Positions 1 to 63,489 of a DNA stretch of 64,000 bases are shown here, piece by piece. Position 1 is the first letter of the stretch, and each line of letters begins with the position of its first letter. The translations under genes and the position numbers were made by a program. The DNA comes from an uncultured Clostridium sp. GTDB taxonomy: Bacteria; Bacillota; Clostridia; TANB77; CAG-508. The stretch lies in NCBI GenBank assembly GCA_945865665.1, contig CAMBEE010000005.1:17186-81185 (forward strand), in the 5' to 3' direction. The notes beneath the pieces are model-generated. The model was not told the DNA's origin, ran no database searches, and saw nothing but the letters and a program-made list of their open reading frames with translations.

Positions 1-290
1 TTTAATTCTATGCTATCTCCTGTTTTACTATTTATGTCTTTTATTATTTCTTGCACTTCTGCTATATTAACATCTGTTCCTGGTAATTCTTCTTTTGTTA
101 ATTGTGCTTTTGTATTTCTTTCTAATATTGCATATTGTACCATTTCTAATTCAGACAATTGCTTTGCTGATACAGTTTCTTTATGCCCTCTTAGTGTTCC
201 TGTTATTGATATTCCTGATATTATTAGTAATAGTACTATTGTTATTACTAGTGCTACTAATGTTATTCCGTTATTTTTTCTTATGTTCAT
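1..290 (-). CDS. prepilin-type (type IV pilin-like) N-terminal domain protein; 5' part only, C-terminus lies beyond window start
   Basis: Minus-strand ATG at 288-290 is not in the ORF track because the frame runs off the window. Translation MNIRKNNGITLVALVITIVLLLIISGISITGTL... stays open to position 1. The leader plus hydrophobic segment after Gly matches the 343-aa protein at 18590-19621. Confidence 0.6.
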   Translation of the reverse strand, partial: MNIRKNNGITLVALVITIVLLLIISGISITGTLRGHKETVSAKQLSELEMVQYAILERNTKAQLTKEELPGTDVNIAEVQEIIKDINSKTGDSIEL

Positions 291-1101: not shown

Positions 1102-2007
1102 ATGGGATTTTTAATAGTATTATTAGTTATAATTTTGGTTATAGCATTCAAATCAATTAAAATCGTTAAACAAGCTGAGGTTTATGTAATTGAAAGATTG
1201 GGCAAATTCTACAAAGTTGCAGATGCTGGTCTTACAATTATAATTCCATTTTTTGACCATGTAAGAAGCGTAGTTAGCTTAAAACAACAAACAATGGATG
1301 TTCCACCTCAAGGAGTTATTACAAAAGATAATGTAACAATTACAATAGACACTGTTGTTTTCTATCAAATAACAGATCCTGCAAAAGCAGTTTATGAAAT
1401 TCAAAGTTTGAAAAAAGGTATTGAATACCTAGCAATTACAACAATTCGTGATATCATTGGTAAAATGGACTTAGACGAAACATTTAGTTCAAGAGACGGT
1501 ATTAATAATCAATTAAGAGTTGTTCTTGACGAAGCTACTGATAGATGGGGATGTAAAATTGATAGAGTTGAAATCAAAGATATTACACCACCTGCTGATA
1601 TCAGAGATGCAATGGAAAAAGAAATGAACGCAGAAAGAAATAAAAGAGCTTTAATTCTTGAATCTGAAGCTCAAAGACAATCTGCTGTAACAATTGCTGA
1701 AGGTAAAAAACAAGCAGCTATTCTAGAAGCTGAAGCTGATAAAGAAGCTAGAATTACCAGAGCAGCCGGTGAAGCACAAGCTATAAAAGAAGTTGCTGAA
1801 GCTAAAGCTAAAGAAATCCAAATGGTTTATGAAGCTATTAAGAAATCAGACCCTGATGAAAAATTAGTTCAATTAAAATCACTTGAAGCTTTAGAGAAAG
1901 TTGCTGATGGAGAAGCTAACAAAGTATTTATTCCTTTTGAAGCAACTAGTGCACTTTCAAGTTTAGGTGCAATTAAAGAAGTTATAAAAGATGAAAAGAA
2001 AAAATAA
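1102..2007 (+). CDS. SPFH/band-7 domain protein (stomatin/prohibitin/FloA-like)
   Basis: Single N-terminal TM helix, SPFH core (QAEVYVIERLGKF...), Ala/Glu/Lys-rich coiled-coil C-terminus. RBS AAAGGAG lies inside the track ORF, so the start is more likely the ATG at 1102 than the GTG at 1084. Confidence 0.8.
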   Translation: MGFLIVLLVIILVIAFKSIKIVKQAEVYVIERLGKFYKVADAGLTIIIPFFDHVRSVVSLKQQTMDVPPQGVITKDNVTITIDTVVFYQITDPAKAVYEIQSLKKGIEYLAITTIRDIIGKMDLDETFSSRDGINNQLRVVLDEATDRWGCKIDRVEIKDITPPADIRDAMEKEMNAERNKRALILESEAQRQSAVTIAEGKKQAAILEAEADKEARITRAAGEAQAIKEVAEAKAKEIQMVYEAIKKSDPDEKLVQLKSLEALEKVADGEANKVFIPFEATSALSSLGAIKEVIKDEKKK

Positions 2008-2011
2008 AAAA

Positions 2012-2049
2012 CGGGATTATGGGACGGGTCTCCAATCCCCTTTTTTTTT
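2012..2049. terminator. Family-1 palindromic repeat (CGGGATT..GGGACGGGTCTCC..AATCCCC) plus T-run; bidirectional terminator between the SPFH gene and argS
   Basis: GC-rich hairpin followed by T9; the same unit recurs at 2105, 22084, 58724, 58766 and 60407. Confidence 0.7.
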
Positions 2050-2104
2050 AGAACATATATGAAAATTTCCAATTATCGTTCCCAACTTCACCTAAATTAA
2101 AAAT

Positions 2105-2135
2105 TAGGGATTGGAGACCCGTCCCCTAATCCCTA
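2105..2135. repeat. Family-1 palindromic repeat, inverted copy
   Basis: TAGGGATTGGAGACCCGTCCCCTAATCCCTA, reverse complement of the 2012 copy with one difference. Confidence 0.7.
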
Positions 2136-2139
2136 ATTT

Positions 2140-3888
2140 TTACATTTTTTCTGGCATTTCTATTCCCAACAAATTAGCCCCTTGTTTCAAAACTTCTGAT
2201 GTTGCATATGTTAAATATACACGAGCATTTTGAACATCTTTATCTTCAACAATAATTTTATTTTCATTATAAAAACTACTATAAGCTTTTGCCAAATCAA
2301 TTAAATATCTTGCAAGAATAGATGGTTCATTTTTATCTGTTACTTGAACCAATACATCTTCAAAATTATAAATCAATTTTAAAATCGCCATTGAATAATC
2401 ATCTGATAAATTTTCTGTTTTTACATCTTCGATTTTTGGTAAATATCCTGCTTTTTCTAATACACTTTTTGTTCTAACATATGTGTATTGAATATATGGG
2501 CCTGTTTCACCTTGGAAATTTAAAATTGTATTCCAGTCAAATACTTCATCTTTTATTCTTGATGCTGACATATCATTAAATATAACTGCACCTATTCCAA
2601 CTTTTTTAGCAACTTCTTCTTTATTTTCTAAGTCCGGATTTTTTTGTTCTATTATTTCTTTTGCTCTAGAAATTGCTTCATTCAACAATTCTTCAAGTTT
2701 GATAGTATTTCCTTCTCTTGTTGACATTTTTCCTTCTGGTAATAATACCATTCCAAATGATACATGCTCTAGTCCGTCTGTATATTTTTCATCTAATCCT
2801 AAAAGTTTTGCTACTTCAAATACTTGTTTAAAGTGCAATACTTGTTCATATGATGTTACATACAATGCTTTATCAAAGTCATACGTTCTAGCTCTATATA
2901 GTATTGCTGCTAAATCTCTTGTTGCATATGTTGTAGAACCATTTGATTTTTCTATTATACATGGTGTATTTATTCCTTTATCTTCTAGGTCTATTATTTT
3001 TGCCCCTTGTGATTCTACTAGTTTACCTGTTTTTTGTAATATATCTATTACTTCTGGCATTTTATCTGAGTAGAATGATTCTCCATTCCAAGAATCAAAT
3101 TTGCTTCCAAGTAAATCATATACTTTTTGGAATTCTTGTAAACTCAGTTCTCTAAATTTTTTCCAAATTTCTACACAATATGGGTCTCCATCTTCTAATT
3201 TCTTGAAGTTGTTTCTACAATTTTCTAATATTTGTTCATCATTCTTGCATGCTTCATTTATTCTTATATAAATTTTTGTTAATTCATTTATTGGATCTTT
3301 TTCAATGTCATATTCTTCTCCCCACATTTTGTATCCTTCTATTAGTTTTCCGAATTGTGTTCCATAATCTCCTAAATGATTGACTCCTGTTACATTATAT
3401 CCCAAATATTTGTATATATTATATAATGCTCCACCTATTACTGTTGAACGTAAGTGACCAATGTGAAATGGTTTTGCAATGTTTGGTGCTGAATAATCTA
3501 TTACTATATTCTTTTCTTTTCCTATTTCTGATTTTCCATATTGTTCTGTTTTTGATATTTCTTCTAATACTTCTTTTGCAAGAGTTTCTTTGTTTATAAA
3601 GAAGTTTAAGTATCCTCCTGCTACTTCTATTTTTTCTATTTCTTCTACTGTTTCTATTTTTTCTTTTATTTCATTTGCGATTGCTGGTGGTGCTTTTCTT
3701 AATTCTTTTGCTAATCTGAAACATGGAAACGCATAATCTCCATTTTTACTGTCTTTTGGAGTTTCAATGTAACTCTCTAATTCTTTCTCATTTATTTCTA
3801 TTGTTTTTGATATTTGTTTTGCTATTATTTTCTTAAAATTCCTCAATTTATTCATTCCTTTCTTAGGACATTTTTCCAAAATCCACAT
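2140..3888 (-). CDS. argS: arginine--tRNA ligase
   Basis: HIGH motif (PFHIGHLRS), typical ArgS length and C-terminal anticodon-binding region. An alternative start at 3855 (MNKLRNF) is possible. A TTGACT-17-TATAAT promoter lies upstream and no T-box was seen. Confidence 0.9.
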   Translation of the reverse strand: MWILEKCPKKGMNKLRNFKKIIAKQISKTIEINEKELESYIETPKDSKNGDYAFPCFRLAKELRKAPPAIANEIKEKIETVEEIEKIEVAGGYLNFFINKETLAKEVLEEISKTEQYGKSEIGKEKNIVIDYSAPNIAKPFHIGHLRSTVIGGALYNIYKYLGYNVTGVNHLGDYGTQFGKLIEGYKMWGEEYDIEKDPINELTKIYIRINEACKNDEQILENCRNNFKKLEDGDPYCVEIWKKFRELSLQEFQKVYDLLGSKFDSWNGESFYSDKMPEVIDILQKTGKLVESQGAKIIDLEDKGINTPCIIEKSNGSTTYATRDLAAILYRARTYDFDKALYVTSYEQVLHFKQVFEVAKLLGLDEKYTDGLEHVSFGMVLLPEGKMSTREGNTIKLEELLNEAISRAKEIIEQKNPDLENKEEVAKKVGIGAVIFNDMSASRIKDEVFDWNTILNFQGETGPYIQYTYVRTKSVLEKAGYLPKIEDVKTENLSDDYSMAILKLIYNFEDVLVQVTDKNEPSILARYLIDLAKAYSSFYNENKIIVEDKDVQNARVYLTYATSEVLKQGANLLGIEMPEKM

Positions 3889-16840: not shown

Positions 16841-17593
16841 TTATTTTGCATATAGTCCTAATGTGAAAATCATTAATAATGCATTTTTTATTGTTTCAAA
16901 TGGTACAAAAATACTTATAAATGTTCCTAACACTATAAAAGGTCCAAATGGTATATATTCATCCATTTTTTTGATTCTTGTTGCTAATAATATTACACTT
17001 AATATTGCTCCTATTAAGAATGAAACTAGTGTTATTGCAATTATATTTGATAGTCCAAAGTATAATCCTAATGCTCCCATTAGTTTTACATCACCAAATC
17101 CCATTGCTTCTTTTCCATATATTGCTCCACCTATTAATGTTATAAGTAAGAAAATCCCCCCTCCTGCAAGCATTCCAAGTGCCATGTTTATTGTTATGGC
17201 TACATCTGATAGTCCATATAAAAATGCTATTACAAGGCCTATTTCGAACATTGTTAGGTTTAGTCTGTTAGGTATTATTTGTAATCTATAGTCTATTACA
17301 AATGCTGATAATAACATTGGTGTTAATATCATATATTTTATTAAATCTAAGTTTGCTATAAATGTTGTTCTTATTCCGTAAAAATATAAAAGTGCTACAT
17401 ATATTGCTGATGTTACTAGCATTAATATATAATTTGGTTTGAATTCTGCAAAGTATTCTGTAAATATTTCTTTTGAAAATACTTTTTTATAGTCTGGTAG
17501 TCTTTTGTTCATCCAATCTACCAGCATTCCTACAAAAAGTCCTATTATTGCAAATACTGCGTAATATGCTATATGTGTTTCATTAATATACAT
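16841..17593 (-). CDS. prepilin peptidase (A24 family, PilD/ComC-like)
   Basis: Polytopic membrane protein with GFGDVKLMGALGLYFG aspartyl-protease box; lacks the N-terminal zinc/methyltransferase domain. Confidence 0.8.
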   Translation of the reverse strand: MYINETHIAYYAVFAIIGLFVGMLVDWMNKRLPDYKKVFSKEIFTEYFAEFKPNYILMLVTSAIYVALLYFYGIRTTFIANLDLIKYMILTPMLLSAFVIDYRLQIIPNRLNLTMFEIGLVIAFLYGLSDVAITINMALGMLAGGGIFLLITLIGGAIYGKEAMGFGDVKLMGALGLYFGLSNIIAITLVSFLIGAILSVILLATRIKKMDEYIPFGPFIVLGTFISIFVPFETIKNALLMIFTLGLYAK

Positions 17594-18158: not shown

Positions 18159-18589
18159 CCTTTTGTGCTCTTTCTTTTGTTTTTTTGCACCTATATAATA
18201 TCAATACGGCTTTTATTTGTCAAGGAATTTGCTAAAATTTAAGCAATCAAAAAAATCACTCTATATCTAGTTTTTTCAATATGTTTATATTGATTTTTTT
18301 CTAGATTTTAGAGTGATTTTTTATTTTAAAAGATTTTCTAATTCTTATGTATCTTTTATTTTTGCTCTACTTATCCTGCTTTTTTTAATAGTCCTGTTTG
18401 TTTTTTATCAGATATTGAAATTCCCGTTTAAATTAGCAAAATAATTATTGTTACAATCAACGAAATAAGAATTACTGCTTAATTCTTTGTTAATGTATTT
18501 TTTTAAAACTTTTCCTTCAATTTAATGCTTTCTTGTATTTTTTCTAAATTAAAAAGCTTTATAATTTTTATCTAAAGTCTTTTTATTTA

Positions 18590-19621
18590 TTACTCTAGCC
18601 ATATTTCATACACCTTTAATATATATGAATTTGAGTCAAATATTAAATATGTTTCTGTATTTGTTAATCCATTTAAATCTATAGTTATTGTTTCTATTCC
18701 TTGATTTAAATTATCAACTGCTGATTGTCTTATTCTTTTGCTAAAACCTATATCAGTTCCATTATTAGCCTTTAATCCAATTCCTGTATTTCTATTTTCA
18801 TGTGATGAAGAAACACCTGTTACTTCTACTTTGGCATATATTTTAGAATATCCTGTAAAATCCATTGTTTTTTCTTTCATTACCATAAAATTTCCTGTAT
18901 AACAATAATTCCCTGTAATTAATAAATAATTTGATTCTTTTGAAAATGTTCCATGGTTTGGTTCTCCATAATTACTAACCTTCCATTCTCCACCAAATGA
19001 TGAATATTCTATTCCATCATTATATAAATACACCTTGTCTATTGTTGTTTCTTCTATTTCTTTTGATATTTTTATTTTTCCATATTTATCCATAGCAATT
19101 ACTTTTATGATATATTTGTGATTTTTTTCTAAATTTTCATATACATATTGTGATTCCTTTGTATATCCTTTTACTTCTCCATTTAAAAGATATGCATATC
19201 CTACTATTTCATTAGAATTTTTTACAGTTATATCTGATGCATCTATTGTAATATAATTTCCATTTTTTTCTTTTAACTTTGGTTTAAAGTCTTCTATATC
19301 TTTTGATATTAAATCATTTTCTGTATCTCTTGAAGTTCCATCTATATATTTTGATATCTTATCTTCATAATCATATAATGCACTATTTTCTAATTTTTCT
19401 GCATTTTTTTGTTTTTCTTTTGCTTGTTTTACTTTTCCAAATAGTCCTGTCTGAGTTAAAGCTGATATTGAAATTCCTGCCAAAATTAATAATATTATAA
19501 TTGTTACCACTAATGCTACAAGTGTTATTCCTTTTATATTTTTCTTTTTATTTTCTTTTAAACTCCCTGTGTGTGTGTGTGTGTGTACAGCCCCAAGGCT
19601 TTCATTTGTTATCTTTTTCAT
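18590..19621 (-). CDS. prepilin-type N-terminal domain protein (343 aa) with (CA)9-encoded His-Thr repeat in the leader
   Basis: RBS AGGAGAG; leader MKKITNESLGAVHTHTHTGSLKENKKKNIKG then ITLVALVVTIIILLILAGISI hydrophobic segment. The motif is noncanonical (Ile+1, no Glu+5). Confidence 0.65.
   Translation of the reverse strand: MKKITNESLGAVHTHTHTGSLKENKKKNIKGITLVALVVTIIILLILAGISISALTQTGLFGKVKQAKEKQKNAEKLENSALYDYEDKISKYIDGTSRDTENDLISKDIEDFKPKLKEKNGNYITIDASDITVKNSNEIVGYAYLLNGEVKGYTKESQYVYENLEKNHKYIIKVIAMDKYGKIKISKEIEETTIDKVYLYNDGIEYSSFGGEWKVSNYGEPNHGTFSKESNYLLITGNYCYTGNFMVMKEKTMDFTGYSKIYAKVEVTGVSSSHENRNTGIGLKANNGTDIGFSKRIRQSAVDNLNQGIETITIDLNGLTNTETYLIFDSNSYILKVYEIWLE
19568..19586. repeat. dinucleotide simple-sequence repeat (TG)9 / (CA)9 inside the coding leader of the pilin-like gene
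   Basis: Read directly: tgtgtgtgtgtgtgtgtgt. Confidence 0.95.
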
Positions 19622-19920
19622 TTCATTCTCTCCTTTGTATTTCTAAATACACATTCAAATTTCATAGTATTAAATGTGTGCTTTATCATTTTATAGTTTC
19701 ATTTTACTATAACTAAAACTATATTTCAACAATTTAAATTATAGTTTTGTGTTTTTAATAAAAATGTCATATTCTTGTAATATTTTTGTAATATTCTAAT
19801 TGTTTAAGTTACATCTTTGTGGTTTCTTATAATAAAAAAAAGCATATATTTTTCTTTTAGAATTATATATACTTTTTTATATTAATTATTAATTTGTTTA
19901 TATCTCAAACAATTTTCTAA

Positions 19921-36844: not shown

Positions 36845-38230
36845 TTACTTTAATTCCATATTATTTTTCTTTTTATTCTTATCAATTATTTCTTCTTTAG
36901 GTTTTACTTTTCTATAAATATTATTTGCAATTTCATTTTCATCATCAGTAAATATACCATTTTTATATAAATCATCACTAACAATTTTATAGTTCTCATT
37001 TTTATCAAAACAAATTCTTTTATGAAAATGTCCCATAATACTATGCCAAAAGTCTTTGAATTTCTGTAATTCTTGTTTTAATTTTTCTTTTTCAGCTTGT
37101 AGTCTATTTACAACCTTGTCTTTAGTTGTTAGTTTGCTTTTCAAGTTATCTATTTCATCTTCTTTTAGCTCTAATTGATATTTAAGTGAATGATTTTCTT
37201 TCGCTATTTTAAAAGAACTATACTCAAAATCTTTAATAGCCATATTTAAGTCATTTACACTTCTAATAGTTTTAGTGGTATCTTTTACATCTTTTGTAAA
37301 ACTTTTGATTTTTTCAATATCTTCGTTTGAAATAACCTTATTATTTTTATTAAATGGGGTAGGTTTTAAATTATCTAATATTGTACTTATATCTTTACTC
37401 GTATTATCAAGTTTTTTAGTTTGGCTATTAGCTTCAGCAAGTTTTTTCTCTTTCTTTTCCAGTTGCTTTTTTATATTTCTATAATTTCCCATATCATTAA
37501 CATTTATGTCTTGATTTCTGCCTTTTTGCTTTTCTTTTAATTTAAATTCTATATCATAGAACTTGTTAAAAGACTTAATACAAGCATTTCTCATTTTATC
37601 TTGAATTGCAGTTAATGACTCTTTTGTAAAAAGTTTTGTTTTACCAACTTGTTTTTTCATGCCTCTAGGAGAGTTCTCTATTATAGGTACTCCAACAATG
37701 TGCATGTGGGGAGAGGTTTCATCAAAATGAATTGTTGCATTTGCTATTTTAAAAGTTGGCACAATTTTAGCTAATTCCTTAACTTGTTCATTATACACAT
37801 CAATCATTTTTATTCTATATTCTTGCTCTTTACCGTTCCAAAAATCCATATCTCCAAGCTCTATTATAATTTCACAGGCTATATCATTTTGTGAGTCACA
37901 CACTTTTTCAAAATAGTTGTCTATTTTTCTATCATCTCTAGTCTGTTTATTATTATATTCAATACGAGCTTCTTCAAATTCTTGTAAATATAAATCTTGC
38001 ACATCATTTACAATATTATCTGTACCATAAATAACTCTAATCAAATCTCTTTGATTATCATAATCTCTTAAGTTGTGTTTATTAACTCTTGATAAATCAT
38101 TTGCATTTTGAATTGCATTATTTGATAGAGAAGTAGTACCAGATACATTTTCTTTAGAAACTTTCTTTGCTAATTTACTTTTATTCTTATCACTACCTAA
38201 ATGAAAAGAATATGCTAATTCTTGCTCCAA
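36845..38230 (-). CDS. plasmid recombination/mobilization relaxase, MobV (Mob_Pre) family
   Basis: N-terminal LAYSFHLG (catalytic Tyr), KHNLRD, and the HxDE..PHxH box (IHFDETSPHMHIV); long coiled-coil C-terminus. Likely TTG start after RBS AAGGAGGTG inside the track ORF. Confidence 0.8.
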   Translation of the reverse strand: MEQELAYSFHLGSDKNKSKLAKKVSKENVSGTTSLSNNAIQNANDLSRVNKHNLRDYDNQRDLIRVIYGTDNIVNDVQDLYLQEFEEARIEYNNKQTRDDRKIDNYFEKVCDSQNDIACEIIIELGDMDFWNGKEQEYRIKMIDVYNEQVKELAKIVPTFKIANATIHFDETSPHMHIVGVPIIENSPRGMKKQVGKTKLFTKESLTAIQDKMRNACIKSFNKFYDIEFKLKEKQKGRNQDINVNDMGNYRNIKKQLEKKEKKLAEANSQTKKLDNTSKDISTILDNLKPTPFNKNNKVISNEDIEKIKSFTKDVKDTTKTIRSVNDLNMAIKDFEYSSFKIAKENHSLKYQLELKEDEIDNLKSKLTTKDKVVNRLQAEKEKLKQELQKFKDFWHSIMGHFHKRICFDKNENYKIVSDDLYKNGIFTDDENEIANNIYRKVKPKEEIIDKNKKKNNMELK

Positions 38231-38428
38231 TGAAAACACCTCCTTGAAATTTCTTCGAAGCACAGGACTTTGACCTTGTCATAAGTCCTAACCCCCTATA
38301 TGTTATGACATACTATCATAACATGGGGGCTCTGCGAGGCAATAAAATTTATTTTTTGCAAATAAATTTTATTCAAATTAACTATCGCCACTTTCATTTT
38401 TGTTATCACAAAAACAAAACGTGCCACG

Positions 38429-40352
<1,924 letters not shown>

Positions 40353-60441: not shown

Positions 60442-63400
60442 TTATCTTTTTATCTCTTCCATGATATATACTTCAATGATATCTCCCTCTTTAACATCAT
60501 TGTAGTTTTCAATTTGCATACCACATTCAAATCCCTTTGTTACTTCTTTAGCATCATCCTTGAATCTCTTCAATGTAGCAAGTTTTCCTTCATGAATTAC
60601 AACATTATCTCTAATAACTCTAACTCCGGCATTTCTTTCAACTTTACCTGATAGAACATAAGCACCTGCAATTGTTCCAACATTTGATATTCTAAATGTT
60701 TGTCTTACTTCTGCATTTCCTATTACTTTTTCTTCATATTTTGGTGCTAACATTCCCTTCATTGCAGCTTCAACTTCTTCTATTGCTTGGTAAATTACTG
60801 AGTATTGTTTAATTTGTACTTCTTCTTTTTCTGCCATTTCTTTTGCTGCTGGTATTGGTCTAACATTGAATGCGATTATTATTGCATTTGATACTTTTGC
60901 AAGTGTTACATCTGATTCGTTGACTGCTCCTGGTGCTGCATGGATAACTTTTACTCTTACTTCTTCATTTTGTAATTTTTCCATTGATTGTTTAACAGCT
61001 TCTACAGATCCTTGAACATCTGCTTTTACAATTAAGTTTAATACTTTTAAATTTCCTTCTTCCATTTGTTCAAATAAATTATCAAGTGTAACTTTTGTTC
61101 CAGCTCCAATTGATTTTTCTCTAGCTTCACGTTTTCTCTTTTCGATTAAGTGTTTAGCTGTTTTTTCGTCTTTTACTTCGTAGAATGTATCTCCAGCTTC
61201 TGGCACTTCTGTTAATCCCATTATTTCTACTGGTGTTGATGGTCCTGCTGATTTTACTTTTTTACCGTTTTCGTTTGTCATTGCTCTTATTCTACCAATT
61301 GAAGAACCAACAATTATTGTATCTCCAACATCTAGTTTTCCTCTTTGTACAAGCATTGTTGCTATTGCACCTTTACCTTTATCAAGTCTTGCTTCTATAA
61401 CAACACCTTTTGCTTGTTTATTTGGATTTGCTTTTAATTCTAGTACATCGGCTTCTAATAATACCATTTCTAATAATTGGTCAATGTTTATGTTATTTTT
61501 AGCAGAGATTGGTACACATATTGTGTCACCACCCCATTCTTCTGGTACTAATTCATAGTTCATTAATTCTTGTTTTACCTTGTCAACATTTGCGTCTGGT
61601 AAATCAATTTTGTTTATTGCAACTATAATTGGTATTCCTGCTGATTTTGCATGGTTTATAGCTTCAACTGTTTGTGGCATTATACCATCATTTGCTGCAA
61701 CTACTAATATTGCTATATCAGTTATTTGAGCACCTCTTGCTCTCATTGCTGTAAATGCTTCATGTCCTGGTGTATCTAAGAATGTGATTTCTCTATCATT
61801 TACTTTAACTTTGTAAGCACCAATTGCTTGTGTGATTCCACCTGCTTCTCCACCAATTACATTTGTTTTTCTAATAGTGTCAAGTAATGATGTTTTACCA
61901 TGGTCAACGTGTCCCATAACAACAACTACTGGTGGTCTTACTTCTAAGTCTTCTTCTTTATCTTCAGAATCATCAAATAAGATATCTTCGTCTGTTACAG
62001 TTTCTTTCTTTTTAGCTGTTATTCCAAATTCTCCAGCAACCAAAAATGCTGTATCAAAATCTAAGTCTTGGTTGATTGTAGCCATAATTCCATATCCAAA
62101 TAATTTTTTAATAACTTCTGCAGTTGTTTTCTTCATTTCTGCTGCTAAGTCTTTTACTGATATTGTATCTGGTATTTCAATTTCTGTTAATTCAAATATT
62201 TTTTGTTTATTTCTTTCTTCATTTTTAACTTGTTTTTTCTTGCCTTTTCTGCCTCTTTGTGTTGTTAAATCATAGTAATCAAGCATTCCACCATCTTGGT
62301 CTTCAAACATATTTGATAATTTGCTTGTTTGTTTTAATGATTTTAATTTTCCCTCGTCAAAGCTATTTTCACTTCTTCTTGATTTTGATTTTTTGTTTTT
62401 GTTATCATCAAATCTATTATTTAATTTTTGTTTATCGATATTTTTACTATAATCTCTAACAACCTCTTTTTCAACAGTATCAACAGCCATTATGTTTTTA
62501 ATGTTCTTTTCAATTCCTTTTTCGTCTAATGGTCTTCTGTTATAATTATTTCCATTATAATTATTTTTATTATTGAAGTTTACATTATCTTTTTTGAAAT
62601 TATTTCTGTTATTTGAATTGTTAAATTCACCATTTCTATTGTTATTAAATCTGCTATTTCTGTTATCAAAACCATTTTTATTTTCAAAATTATTTCTATT
62701 TTCAAAACCGCTTCTGTTTTCAGAATTATTTCTATTATTGAAATTATTTCTGTTGTTTTGATTGTTTCTTGAATTACCATTTCTATTATTAAAATTATTT
62801 TTACTAAAGTTATTAGTTCTTTCTGAATTATTGAAATTTCCATTATTTCTTTTTTCTGCTACTTGTGATTGCATTGCTAAATTACTATCCCCTTGTCTTT
62901 TAATTTCTTCTTTTTTTACTGGCTCTATTTGTGCCTGTTCTTTTACATTTTTACTTTTTACTTCTTCTTTTACAACTTCTTTCTTTGGTTCTGGCTTATT
63001 AAGTCCAAACAATTCATTAACAGTTTTAGGTTTATTGGGCTTATTTCTATAAACTATATTAAAATCTTTATTTTGTTTTCTTTCAACTATCCCTATATTG
63101 CTTTTATTTTCTTTTTTTGTTTTATTATTTTTTTTATTATCTTCATCATTTATAATAACTTCTCTTCTTATTATAACTGGTGCTTTTTCTTCTTTTTTTG
63201 ATGTATTACTTGGTTTTACATCTTTTTTTGGTACAGAAACATTTTGTTTTACATCTTTTTTTGAGGTCATTTCTGGTTTTGAATCAGATTTTTTTGATAA
63301 GCTATTTTCTATTTTTCTAGCTTCTTCTTCTTCTACACCACTCATATGACTTTTAACTTCTATATTTAGTTTTTGTGCCATCTCTAATACTTCTTTACTG

Positions 63401-63489
63401 GCTAAGCCTAGCTTTTTTGCTATTTCATAAATTTTTACCTTACCCAATAACATCACCCCCATCGTATTTTTTTTGAATTGAATTTGCAA
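60442..63489 (-). CDS. infB: translation initiation factor IF-2, with an Asn/Arg-rich low-complexity insert
   Basis: Conserved N-terminus [17 protein letters not shown]-domain ([17 protein letters not shown]), C-terminal beta-barrels. The real start is probably 63453 or 63462; the 63489 track start is TTG. About 120 aa of NRN/NFN low-complexity is encoded around 62500-62880. Confidence 0.95.

Follow-up and report, generated by a model that had tools for sequence, protein, structure and literature searches.

The window analyzed here is a stretch of 64,000 nucleotides (64 kb) of contig CAMBEE010000005.1 from an uncultured Clostridium sp., with a G+C content of 28.5%. Its minus strand carries a gene for a 343-amino-acid (aa) protein whose leader-coding region contains a long CA dinucleotide tract, and the tract, this gene and the family to which it belongs are the subject of this report (Table 1). 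The tract is an uninterrupted (CA)9 at 19585..19568 on the minus strand, read on the plus strand as (TG)9 (19568-19585) with a T adjoining it at 19586. The full minus-strand run is A(CA)9, 19 nt in length, for which Tandem Repeats Finder (TRF) reported a period of 2, 9.5 copies and 100% matches. An earlier note on this DNA had described an in-frame (CA)9 at 19568-19586 encoding HTHTHT near the start of the 343-aa protein; the sequence and the TRF result bear this out, except that position 19586 is an additional A lying outside the pure repeat. Within the open reading frame (ORF; 19621..18590) the tract supplies codons 13-18 (CAC ACA CAC ACA CAC ACA), lies 36 nt from the first start codon, ATG1, and is bordered by the unique sequences GCCTTGRGGCTGTA and GGGAGTTTAAAAG. 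The longest other dinucleotide runs in the 64 kb are (TA)5 and (TG)4, leaving (CA)9 as the sole long one, and none of 100 dinucleotide-preserving shuffles of the window matched (CA)9 with two mismatches allowed.

Table 1. Features of the CA-tract gene and its surroundings in the window (n, number of CA units; a slash marks the predicted cleavage site)
Feature	Position	Strand	Basis or remark
A(CA)9 tract, codons 13-18 (HTHTHT)	19568..19586	-	Sequence, TRF, shuffles; orthologs with n = 12, 14, 16; paralogs with n = 8-17
ORF, 343 aa	18590..19621	-	Predicted parts: leader 1-31, hydrophobic/extended helix 32-94, Fn3-like ~105-192, CBM-like 197-343
ATG1, in frame if n mod 3 = 0 (window)	19619..19621	-	Sequence, in silico n series
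Shine-Dalgarno GGAGAG, 6 nt 5' of ATG1	19628..19633	-	Sequence; alignment of 13 copies
ATG2, +1 frame, within AAT GAA AGC; in frame if n mod 3 = 2	19603..19605	-	In silico n series; database proteins
Two out-of-frame TAA stops just 3' of the tract	19548..19560	-	In silico n series
Gly31 codon, predicted -1 of prepilin-type cleavage site KG/ITLVALV	19529..19531	-	Class III signal-peptide pattern
Hydrophobic helix ITLVALVVTIIILLILAGISISALTQ, residues 32-57, containing the GTG (19510..19508) used for off-state copies	19451..19528	-	Translation, model
Candidate sigma-70-type promoter TTGAAA, 17-nt spacer, TAAAAT	19701..19729	-	Consensus match only; conserved in orthologous copies
Degraded remnant of the N-terminal coding region of another family member	18333..18470	-	AVILISLIVTIIILLI-stop-TGISIS..., that is, AVILISLIVTIIILLI-stop-TGISISDKKQTGLLKKAG-stop
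Peptidase A24 (prepilin peptidase family) gene	16841..17593	-	GFGD motif in translation; Pfam E = 5e-18

Reading frames around the tract and the predicted product

Two ATG codons lie upstream of the tract. In the window, ATG1 is preceded by the Shine-Dalgarno (SD) context AAAGGAGAG, with a GGAGAG core at 19633..19628, and the GGAG core was invariant in 13 of 13 aligned copies, which display two SD flavors, AAAGGAGAG and AAAGGAGGA. As this SD and a 6-nt spacer precede ATG1, the tract is placed within the translated region and not in a 5' untranslated region. The second codon, ATG2, is located 16 nt 3' of ATG1, and its product reads MKALGLY(TH)nT-GSLKEN.... No recognizable SD of its own was found for ATG2; the GGAGAG lies 22 nt upstream, with the sequence AAAAAGATAACAA in between. 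Initiation at ATG2 is therefore probably weak and its expression level low. Promoter and terminator scans around the gene returned matches no more numerous than those in shuffles, and the promoter assignment in Table 1 is accordingly tentative.

The tract unit of 2 nt is not divisible by three, and when the gene was rebuilt in silico with n = 5-18 and translated from both ATGs, unit changes shifted the frame and early stops followed. Where n mod 3 = 0, ATG1 yields the full-length protein and ATG2 a short peptide ending ...QGV. Where n mod 3 = 2, translation from ATG1 ends at ...REFKRK (TAA 19550..19548), and ATG2 yields the full-length protein. Where n mod 3 = 1, ATG1 leads to ...QGV (TAA 19560..19558) and ATG2 to ...REFKRK. 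The stops stand 3-7 codons past the tract in both wrong frames. The earlier note had proposed that a single CA unit gained or lost would switch the protein off; this is true of a gain (n = 10), whereas a loss (n = 8) brings ATG2 into frame and need not turn the gene off. Its further claim that no usable start exists downstream was confirmed, as no ATG, GTG or TTG occurs from the tract to the hydrophobic segment and the first is the GTG at 19510..19508 within the membrane helix. GGGAG was considered as a possible SD for an overlooked start in the stretch separating the tract from the helix, and this was rejected, the only in-frame candidate being an ATA 30 nt downstream. The third frame in the window contains a TGA overlapping ATG2, with no start thereafter. 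In some alleles (P0062, P0144, P0146, P0173, P0211 and P0228) this TGA is TGG (...KWKPWGC(TH)nT...), which opens the third frame back to a far-upstream ATG spanning the SD; gene callers pick that ATG, although its use by ribosomes is doubtful.

The N terminus, ...KKKNIKG/ITLVALVVTIIILLILAGISIS, has a basic leader, Gly at position -1 and approximately 22 hydrophobic residues, which is the class III signal-peptide pattern. The leader extends over 31 aa (M1-G31) to the Gly preceding ITLV, one residue more than the 30 aa given previously, and is unusually long, as relatives without a tract have leaders of 5-15 aa. Mature position +5 is Ala (ITLVA), and the Glu+5 of prepilins is absent. The Pfam N_methyl model (PF07963) aligned to residues 27-51 with 16.7 bits, below its cutoff of 21.2, and an fn3 match was also subthreshold. 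NCBIfam gave no match for the protein and no hit to its prepilin N-terminal domain model (TIGR02532). Matches in PHROGs were weak and confined to the hydrophobic helix; thus, nothing indicates a phage origin.

An AlphaFold model built from 20 homologs reached moderate confidence, with a mean predicted local distance difference test (pLDDT) score of 77.7. In this model the leader (1-31) is disordered (pLDDT ~40) and followed by a helix (32-94) with no sheet packed against it, an Fn3-like sandwich at ~105-192 (pLDDT above 90) and a second beta-sandwich at 197-343. In the Protein Data Bank (PDB), the best Foldseek matches were to a carbohydrate-binding module (CBM) structure, 2c26 (E = 2e-8), to FN3 tandems and to glycosidases that bear CBMs; none was to a pilin, and the model lacks a pilin fold. 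The description of the protein as pilin-like in the earlier note is therefore apt for the leader and helix, but not for the remainder, given the missing Glu+5, the subthreshold N_methyl match and a predicted body of Fn3 and CBM-like domains in place of a pilin head. Taken with an A24 peptidase neighbor that has no pilus machinery around it in the 64 kb, the leader/helix pattern and the predicted Fn3/CBM-like head suggest a pilin-like-anchored surface protein, probably a glycan-binding adhesin. Leader cleavage, surface display and adhesin function would follow from these sequence patterns.

Tract length in orthologs and across the gene family

To compare tract lengths, contigs were drawn from ENA, Logan and NCBI through protein look-ups, all of them short-read metagenome assemblies. 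Orthologous copies with the same body were identified in gut metagenomes, with flanks 96-98% identical to the window and a common order of YhgE/Pip, the slot holding the tract gene, a YqeG-like HAD phosphatase, A24 peptidase and M24 peptidase. Where the earlier note had named one fixed or interrupted length in relatives as evidence against a switch, these copies have n = 9 (window), 12 (L005), 14 (L004) and 16 (L001 and L002), the last two being copies called from the GTG. The exact window protein had no contigs on record in the look-up, and a look-up of the window YqeG-like protein, made to obtain unbiased copies of the slot, returned just one 1.2-kb contig. A scan of JGI metagenomes with the tract and leader gave no matches. 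In one further contig, L003, a large serine recombinase gene (1388-3001; Resolvase, Recombinase and Zn_ribbon_recom) interrupts an ortholog of the window gene. As the recombinase ends exactly where the gene resumes, at junction 3001 (...GCATTA/GTGGTAAC, the slash here marking the junction) in the helix-coding region, a mobile element has inserted into this copy.

The window protein, P0001, belongs to a 90%-identity cluster of seven members. P0001 itself has (HT)3, P0122 has (HT)4, P0123 reads MKALRLY(TH)4T, and P0126 has an interrupted HTHIYTHT. P0121, at 306 aa, begins at the internal GTG and is an off-state call, and P0124 and P0125 have short leaders with no tract. Beyond this cluster, the family leader in database proteins is MKKITNESLGAV(HT)nGSLKENKKKNIKG/ITLVALVV, followed by C-terminal parts that are unrelated and range from ~200 to 490 aa. 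Near-identical leader DNA was found in 20 of 20 further allele clusters. Fifteen of these contain a mix of long-tract (either frame), short-tract or GTG-truncated forms, a GTG-truncated member is present in 10, and several also hold short-leader members without a tract.

In a tally of distinct proteins as gene-called, which are not independent samples and under-count off states, 62 were in the ATG1 frame, with n = 3 (32 proteins), 6 (3), 9 (16), 12 (5) and 15 (6), and 32 had their gene-caller start at ATG2, with n = 8 (9), 11 (6), 14 (10) and 17 (7). Five were open in the third frame, with n = 10 (2), 13 (1) and 16 (2), and 18 were GTG-truncated, a form from which n is unreadable in the protein. 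For n ≥ 8, the tally was spread about equally over the three frames, with 27 distinct proteins in the ATG1 frame, 32 in the ATG2 frame and 23 in the third frame (5 open plus 18 GTG-truncated). Tract lengths were bimodal, n = 3 being common and the long class spanning 8-17, with n = 4-7 almost absent. The short class, comprising n = 3 or interrupted and degenerate forms such as VYIYRGSL, is presumably stable. P0015 (GTATACACACATACACACACAGGG), an allele whose tract is interrupted and which is the same in 16 contigs, was evaluated as a stable control and rejected, because the look-up was by exact protein and its 90% cluster includes long-tract, ATG2-frame and truncated members.

All nine truncated copies inspected as DNA had n mod 3 = 1 (n = 10, 13 or 16; values listed for truncated copies are 16, 16, 13, 10, 10, 16, 16 and 10). 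The off-state copies examined had a complete open body, 325 codons counted from the tract, with no second lesion. As the downstream ORF is retained intact, the off form is best read as a reversible state and not as decay. In an alignment of 13 copies, the DNA encoding the tract, the cleavage site and the first part of the helix was almost invariant throughout, silent sites included, whereas upstream promoter regions were of several types and gene bodies were unrelated. This combination points to recombination or gene conversion that would have spread one switch module among the genes.

A proposed translational switch and its alternatives

Taken together, it is very probable that (CA)n acts as a translational contingency switch with three states, driven by slipped-strand mispairing. 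The earlier note had also arrived at phase variation, and that reading gains support from the differing n of orthologs, the use of three frames and the n mod 3 = 1 of all off copies. The tract, the frames and the stops were observed directly, as was variation in length between samples that involves all three frames. Mispairing during replication would add or remove CA units, each of which would shift the frame by 2 nt between the start codons and the remainder of the gene. At n mod 3 = 0 (window, n = 9), ATG1 with its strong SD would be in frame, giving the full 343-aa preprotein. At n mod 3 = 2, ribosomes from ATG1 would halt at ...REFKRK, and ATG2 would yield that protein, its leader shortened, probably at a low level. 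At n mod 3 = 1, neither ATG would be in frame, ribosomes from ATG1 would halt at ...QGV, and the gene would be off. The same leader and tract module, nearly identical in DNA, heads a family of genes whose C-terminal domains are unrelated. Between one and four such genes occupy the hypervariable slot by the prepilin peptidase gene, and since several slot genes carry the module, a population could display many combinations of proteins. By analogy with known repeat switches, switching in vivo at an appreciable rate and reversibility within a clone would be expected.

Several points weigh against this interpretation. The evidence is all between-sample and reflects hypermutability over population time, as distinct from a per-generation rate or reversibility within a clone, and the census counts called proteins in place of independent samples. 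Near-equal frame occupancy shows no sign of selection for the on state. ATG2, without an SD and 16 nt from ATG1, may be barely used, and its conservation is inseparable from that of the leader as a whole, which is almost complete at the nucleotide level; the chances that ATG2 provides a functional low-level state are about even.

The near-equal frequency of the three frames would also fit a family in decay, in which frameshifted copies are pseudogenes and the tract is a nonadaptive mutational weak point. The degraded remnant just downstream of the gene (18333-18470) and the serine recombinase element interrupting the ortholog in L003 are in keeping with such an explanation. However, every off-state copy examined retains a full-length open body with no second lesion, and dozens of alleles preserve an unbroken tract of 8-17 units, where drift would interrupt and shorten it. 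With the leader DNA around it almost invariant and stops directly past it in both wrong frames, decay is improbable.

It is very improbable that the tract serves as a functional His-Thr peptide, for example, one that binds metals or acts as a spacer, with length a mere protein polymorphism and no switch. His-rich repeats can bind metals, and many copies do have multiples of three units, giving (HT)1, 3, 4 or 5, but nonmultiples (n = 8, 10, 11, 13, 14, 16 and 17) are at least as common. The ATG2 frame reads the same DNA as (TH)n, and many family members with the same body lack the segment altogether. Moreover, the leader is predicted to be disordered (pLDDT ~40) and would lie on the cytoplasmic or cleaved side of the helix.

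The origin of all comparison sequences in short-read metagenome assemblies, together with PCR stutter at dinucleotide runs, raises the question of whether the length differences are assembly or sequencing artifacts at a low-complexity run. Stutter usually amounts to about one unit and seldom wins the consensus, whereas the lengths range over 8-17 units across many independent projects and assemblers. They also recur, with n = 16 in L001, L002, L022 and L023, and values of 17, 17, 15 and 17 were obtained for four copies on one contig. As even a 36-nt tract is well inside read length, an artifact is highly improbable. An action mainly at the DNA or RNA level, through Z-DNA, which (CA/TG)n can form under supercoiling, or through mRNA structure affecting transcription or initiation from a tract merely 36 nt from ATG1, with the frame effect secondary, is exceedingly improbable, as frame logic alone explains the full-length, alternative-start and truncated calls in every DNA copy checked.

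The proposed three-state switch has parallels among known contingency loci. Repeat-driven phase variation is textbook knowledge for small-genome host-adapted pathogens, namely, Neisseria, Haemophilus, Helicobacter, Campylobacter and mycoplasmas. The Helicobacter pylori genes sabA, sabB and hopZ carry CT repeats in the signal-peptide-coding region. The same arrangement in H. pylori oipA (hopH) is switched on and off by slipped-strand mispairing, with many repeat numbers among isolates (PMC10564699). The family described here resembles these Hop genes in placing a dinucleotide repeat in the 5' signal or leader coding region of paralogous surface genes of adhesin type. It differs in that the Hop genes belong to Campylobacterota, which are Gram negative, and use CT repeats ahead of beta-barrel outer membrane proteins with a Sec signal peptide, while the present genes belong to gut Clostridia and combine CA repeats with a pilin-like leader and helix and a predicted Fn3 and CBM-like head. 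There is no sequence homology between the two, and here a second start would rescue one of the two shifted frames.

In Haemophilus influenzae licA (lic1), (CAAT)n lies 3' of several initiation codons that between them cover two reading frames out of three, and the gene switches at ~10^-2 to 10^-3 per generation (PMC2212159). As in licA, the repeat number would set which start is in frame, with two frames on and one off, matching the ATG1/ATG2 logic. Unlike the present family of surface proteins sharing one switch module, licA is a single gene with a tetranucleotide repeat, encoding a cytoplasmic choline kinase that modifies lipopolysaccharide. The opa genes of Neisseria, which encode multiple surface adhesins, have (CTCTT)n in the leader-peptide-coding region. 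Each opa copy has its own leader repeat, allowing independent switching and combinatorial expression, as would be the case here, but opa repeats are pentanucleotides and the genes encode outer-membrane beta-barrels and are scattered over the genome, in contrast to one hypervariable slot. On the protein side, the modular type IV pilins PilB and PilC of the monoderm Streptococcus sanguinis also join a class III-type leader and helix to an extra domain of adhesin or lectin type, with a prepilin peptidase gene nearby. Those pilins possess Glu5, a pilin module and a pilus-machinery operon, whereas here there is no Glu5, no predicted pilin head and no machinery in the 64 kb; modular pilin genes of the PilB/PilC type are not known to be switched by repeats.

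A literature search found no dinucleotide contingency family in Clostridia or gut commensal Firmicutes, an absence that is no proof, and the gut-microbiome literature found on phase variation concerned invertible DNA (invertons and promoters) and methylation. The mechanism itself is known; what appears to be new is its occurrence in this lineage and gene family. A wider reading is offered tentatively, with a likelihood somewhat short of even: a portable switch cassette of almost identical DNA, made up of the SD with ATG1, ATG2 in another frame, (CA)n and the pilin-like leader, may have been recombined onto many unrelated lectin or adhesin bodies in the hypervariable slot by the prepilin peptidase gene. 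Each gene could then take three heritable levels (high, low and off), yielding a combinatorial surface repertoire, in effect a "phasome" of a commensal Firmicute built on repeats. The locus suggests that an uncultured human-gut lineage of Clostridia, recurrent in Hadza and other gut metagenomes, varies a whole family of probable glycan-binding surface proteins by repeat-driven switching, which is relevant to how commensals evade immunity or phages and change niche. As gene callers yield three kinds of product from these genes, pangenome and function tables will miscount the family. A three-frame census across samples could serve as a system for measuring switching from metagenomic reads.

The chromosomal slot and other features of the window

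A scan of GTDB species representatives with the tract and leader identified one species only, represented by the metagenome-assembled genome CAKOWP01 (uncultured Clostridia bacterium, Hadza gut). In CAKOWP01 the slot is occupied by four tandem paralogs with n = 17, 17, 15 and 17, and two n = 3 copies are present on a different contig, L006. The slot in L009-L018, with flanks 97-98% identical, holds a single 211-aa gene (P0015), and that in L020, which likewise lies just upstream of the YqeG-like, A24 and M24 genes, is filled by a tandem pair with n = 13 and n = 10, each gene being in the off state. A tandem pair at another chromosomal site (L019 9323-10624) combines n = 11 with a short tract. 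The slot between the YhgE/Pip-like and YqeG-like genes is hypervariable, with 1, 2 or 4 family genes (L009 8001-8636, L020 870-2240 and L007 3780-7817, respectively).

Homology between the window and the P0015-type contigs takes in the preceding gene, the promoter region and, within the family gene itself, the leader and approximately the first 100 codons; it then breaks, to resume ~260 nt past the stop of the window gene. Because homology is lost within the gene and regained beyond its stop, the C-terminal body is a replaceable cassette. The remnant at 18333-18470, between the 343-aa gene and the YqeG-like gene, shares 71-81% DNA identity with the helix-coding part of family members. A tandem gene that once stood here probably left it behind, in which case the slot was formerly a tandem array.

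In every related contig, the slot is followed ~1 kb downstream by an A24 peptidase gene, for which NCBIfam returned no family. Searches of the 64 kb, which otherwise holds housekeeping genes, turned up no pilus or secretion ATPase motif and no platform gene. Positions 1-290 (minus strand) belong to another member of the family, MNIRKNNG/ITLVALVITIVLLLIISGISITG..., which has a short leader, lacks a tract and runs past the start of the window. In contig L023, a gene with weak Pfam matches to rve (integrase core) and HTH_38 (1910-2995), probably an insertion sequence transposase, is found directly 3' of an off-state family gene with n = 16.

Two further regions of the window were noted. Among housekeeping genes at 36845-40066 (minus strand), a Mob_Pre relaxase gene (36845-38263) stands beside a gene with a Pfam Recombinase domain (38429-40066), the product of which is probably a large serine recombinase, and the pair looks like a small integrated mobilizable element. 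An imperfect tandem repeat with a unit of 18 or 36 nt (5.4 or 2.8 copies, respectively) was identified at 62655-62754 (minus strand), in the N-terminal part of infB (IF-2 gene, 60442-63489). As its unit is divisible by three, this repeat is a candidate for protein-repeat polymorphism and not for a switch.

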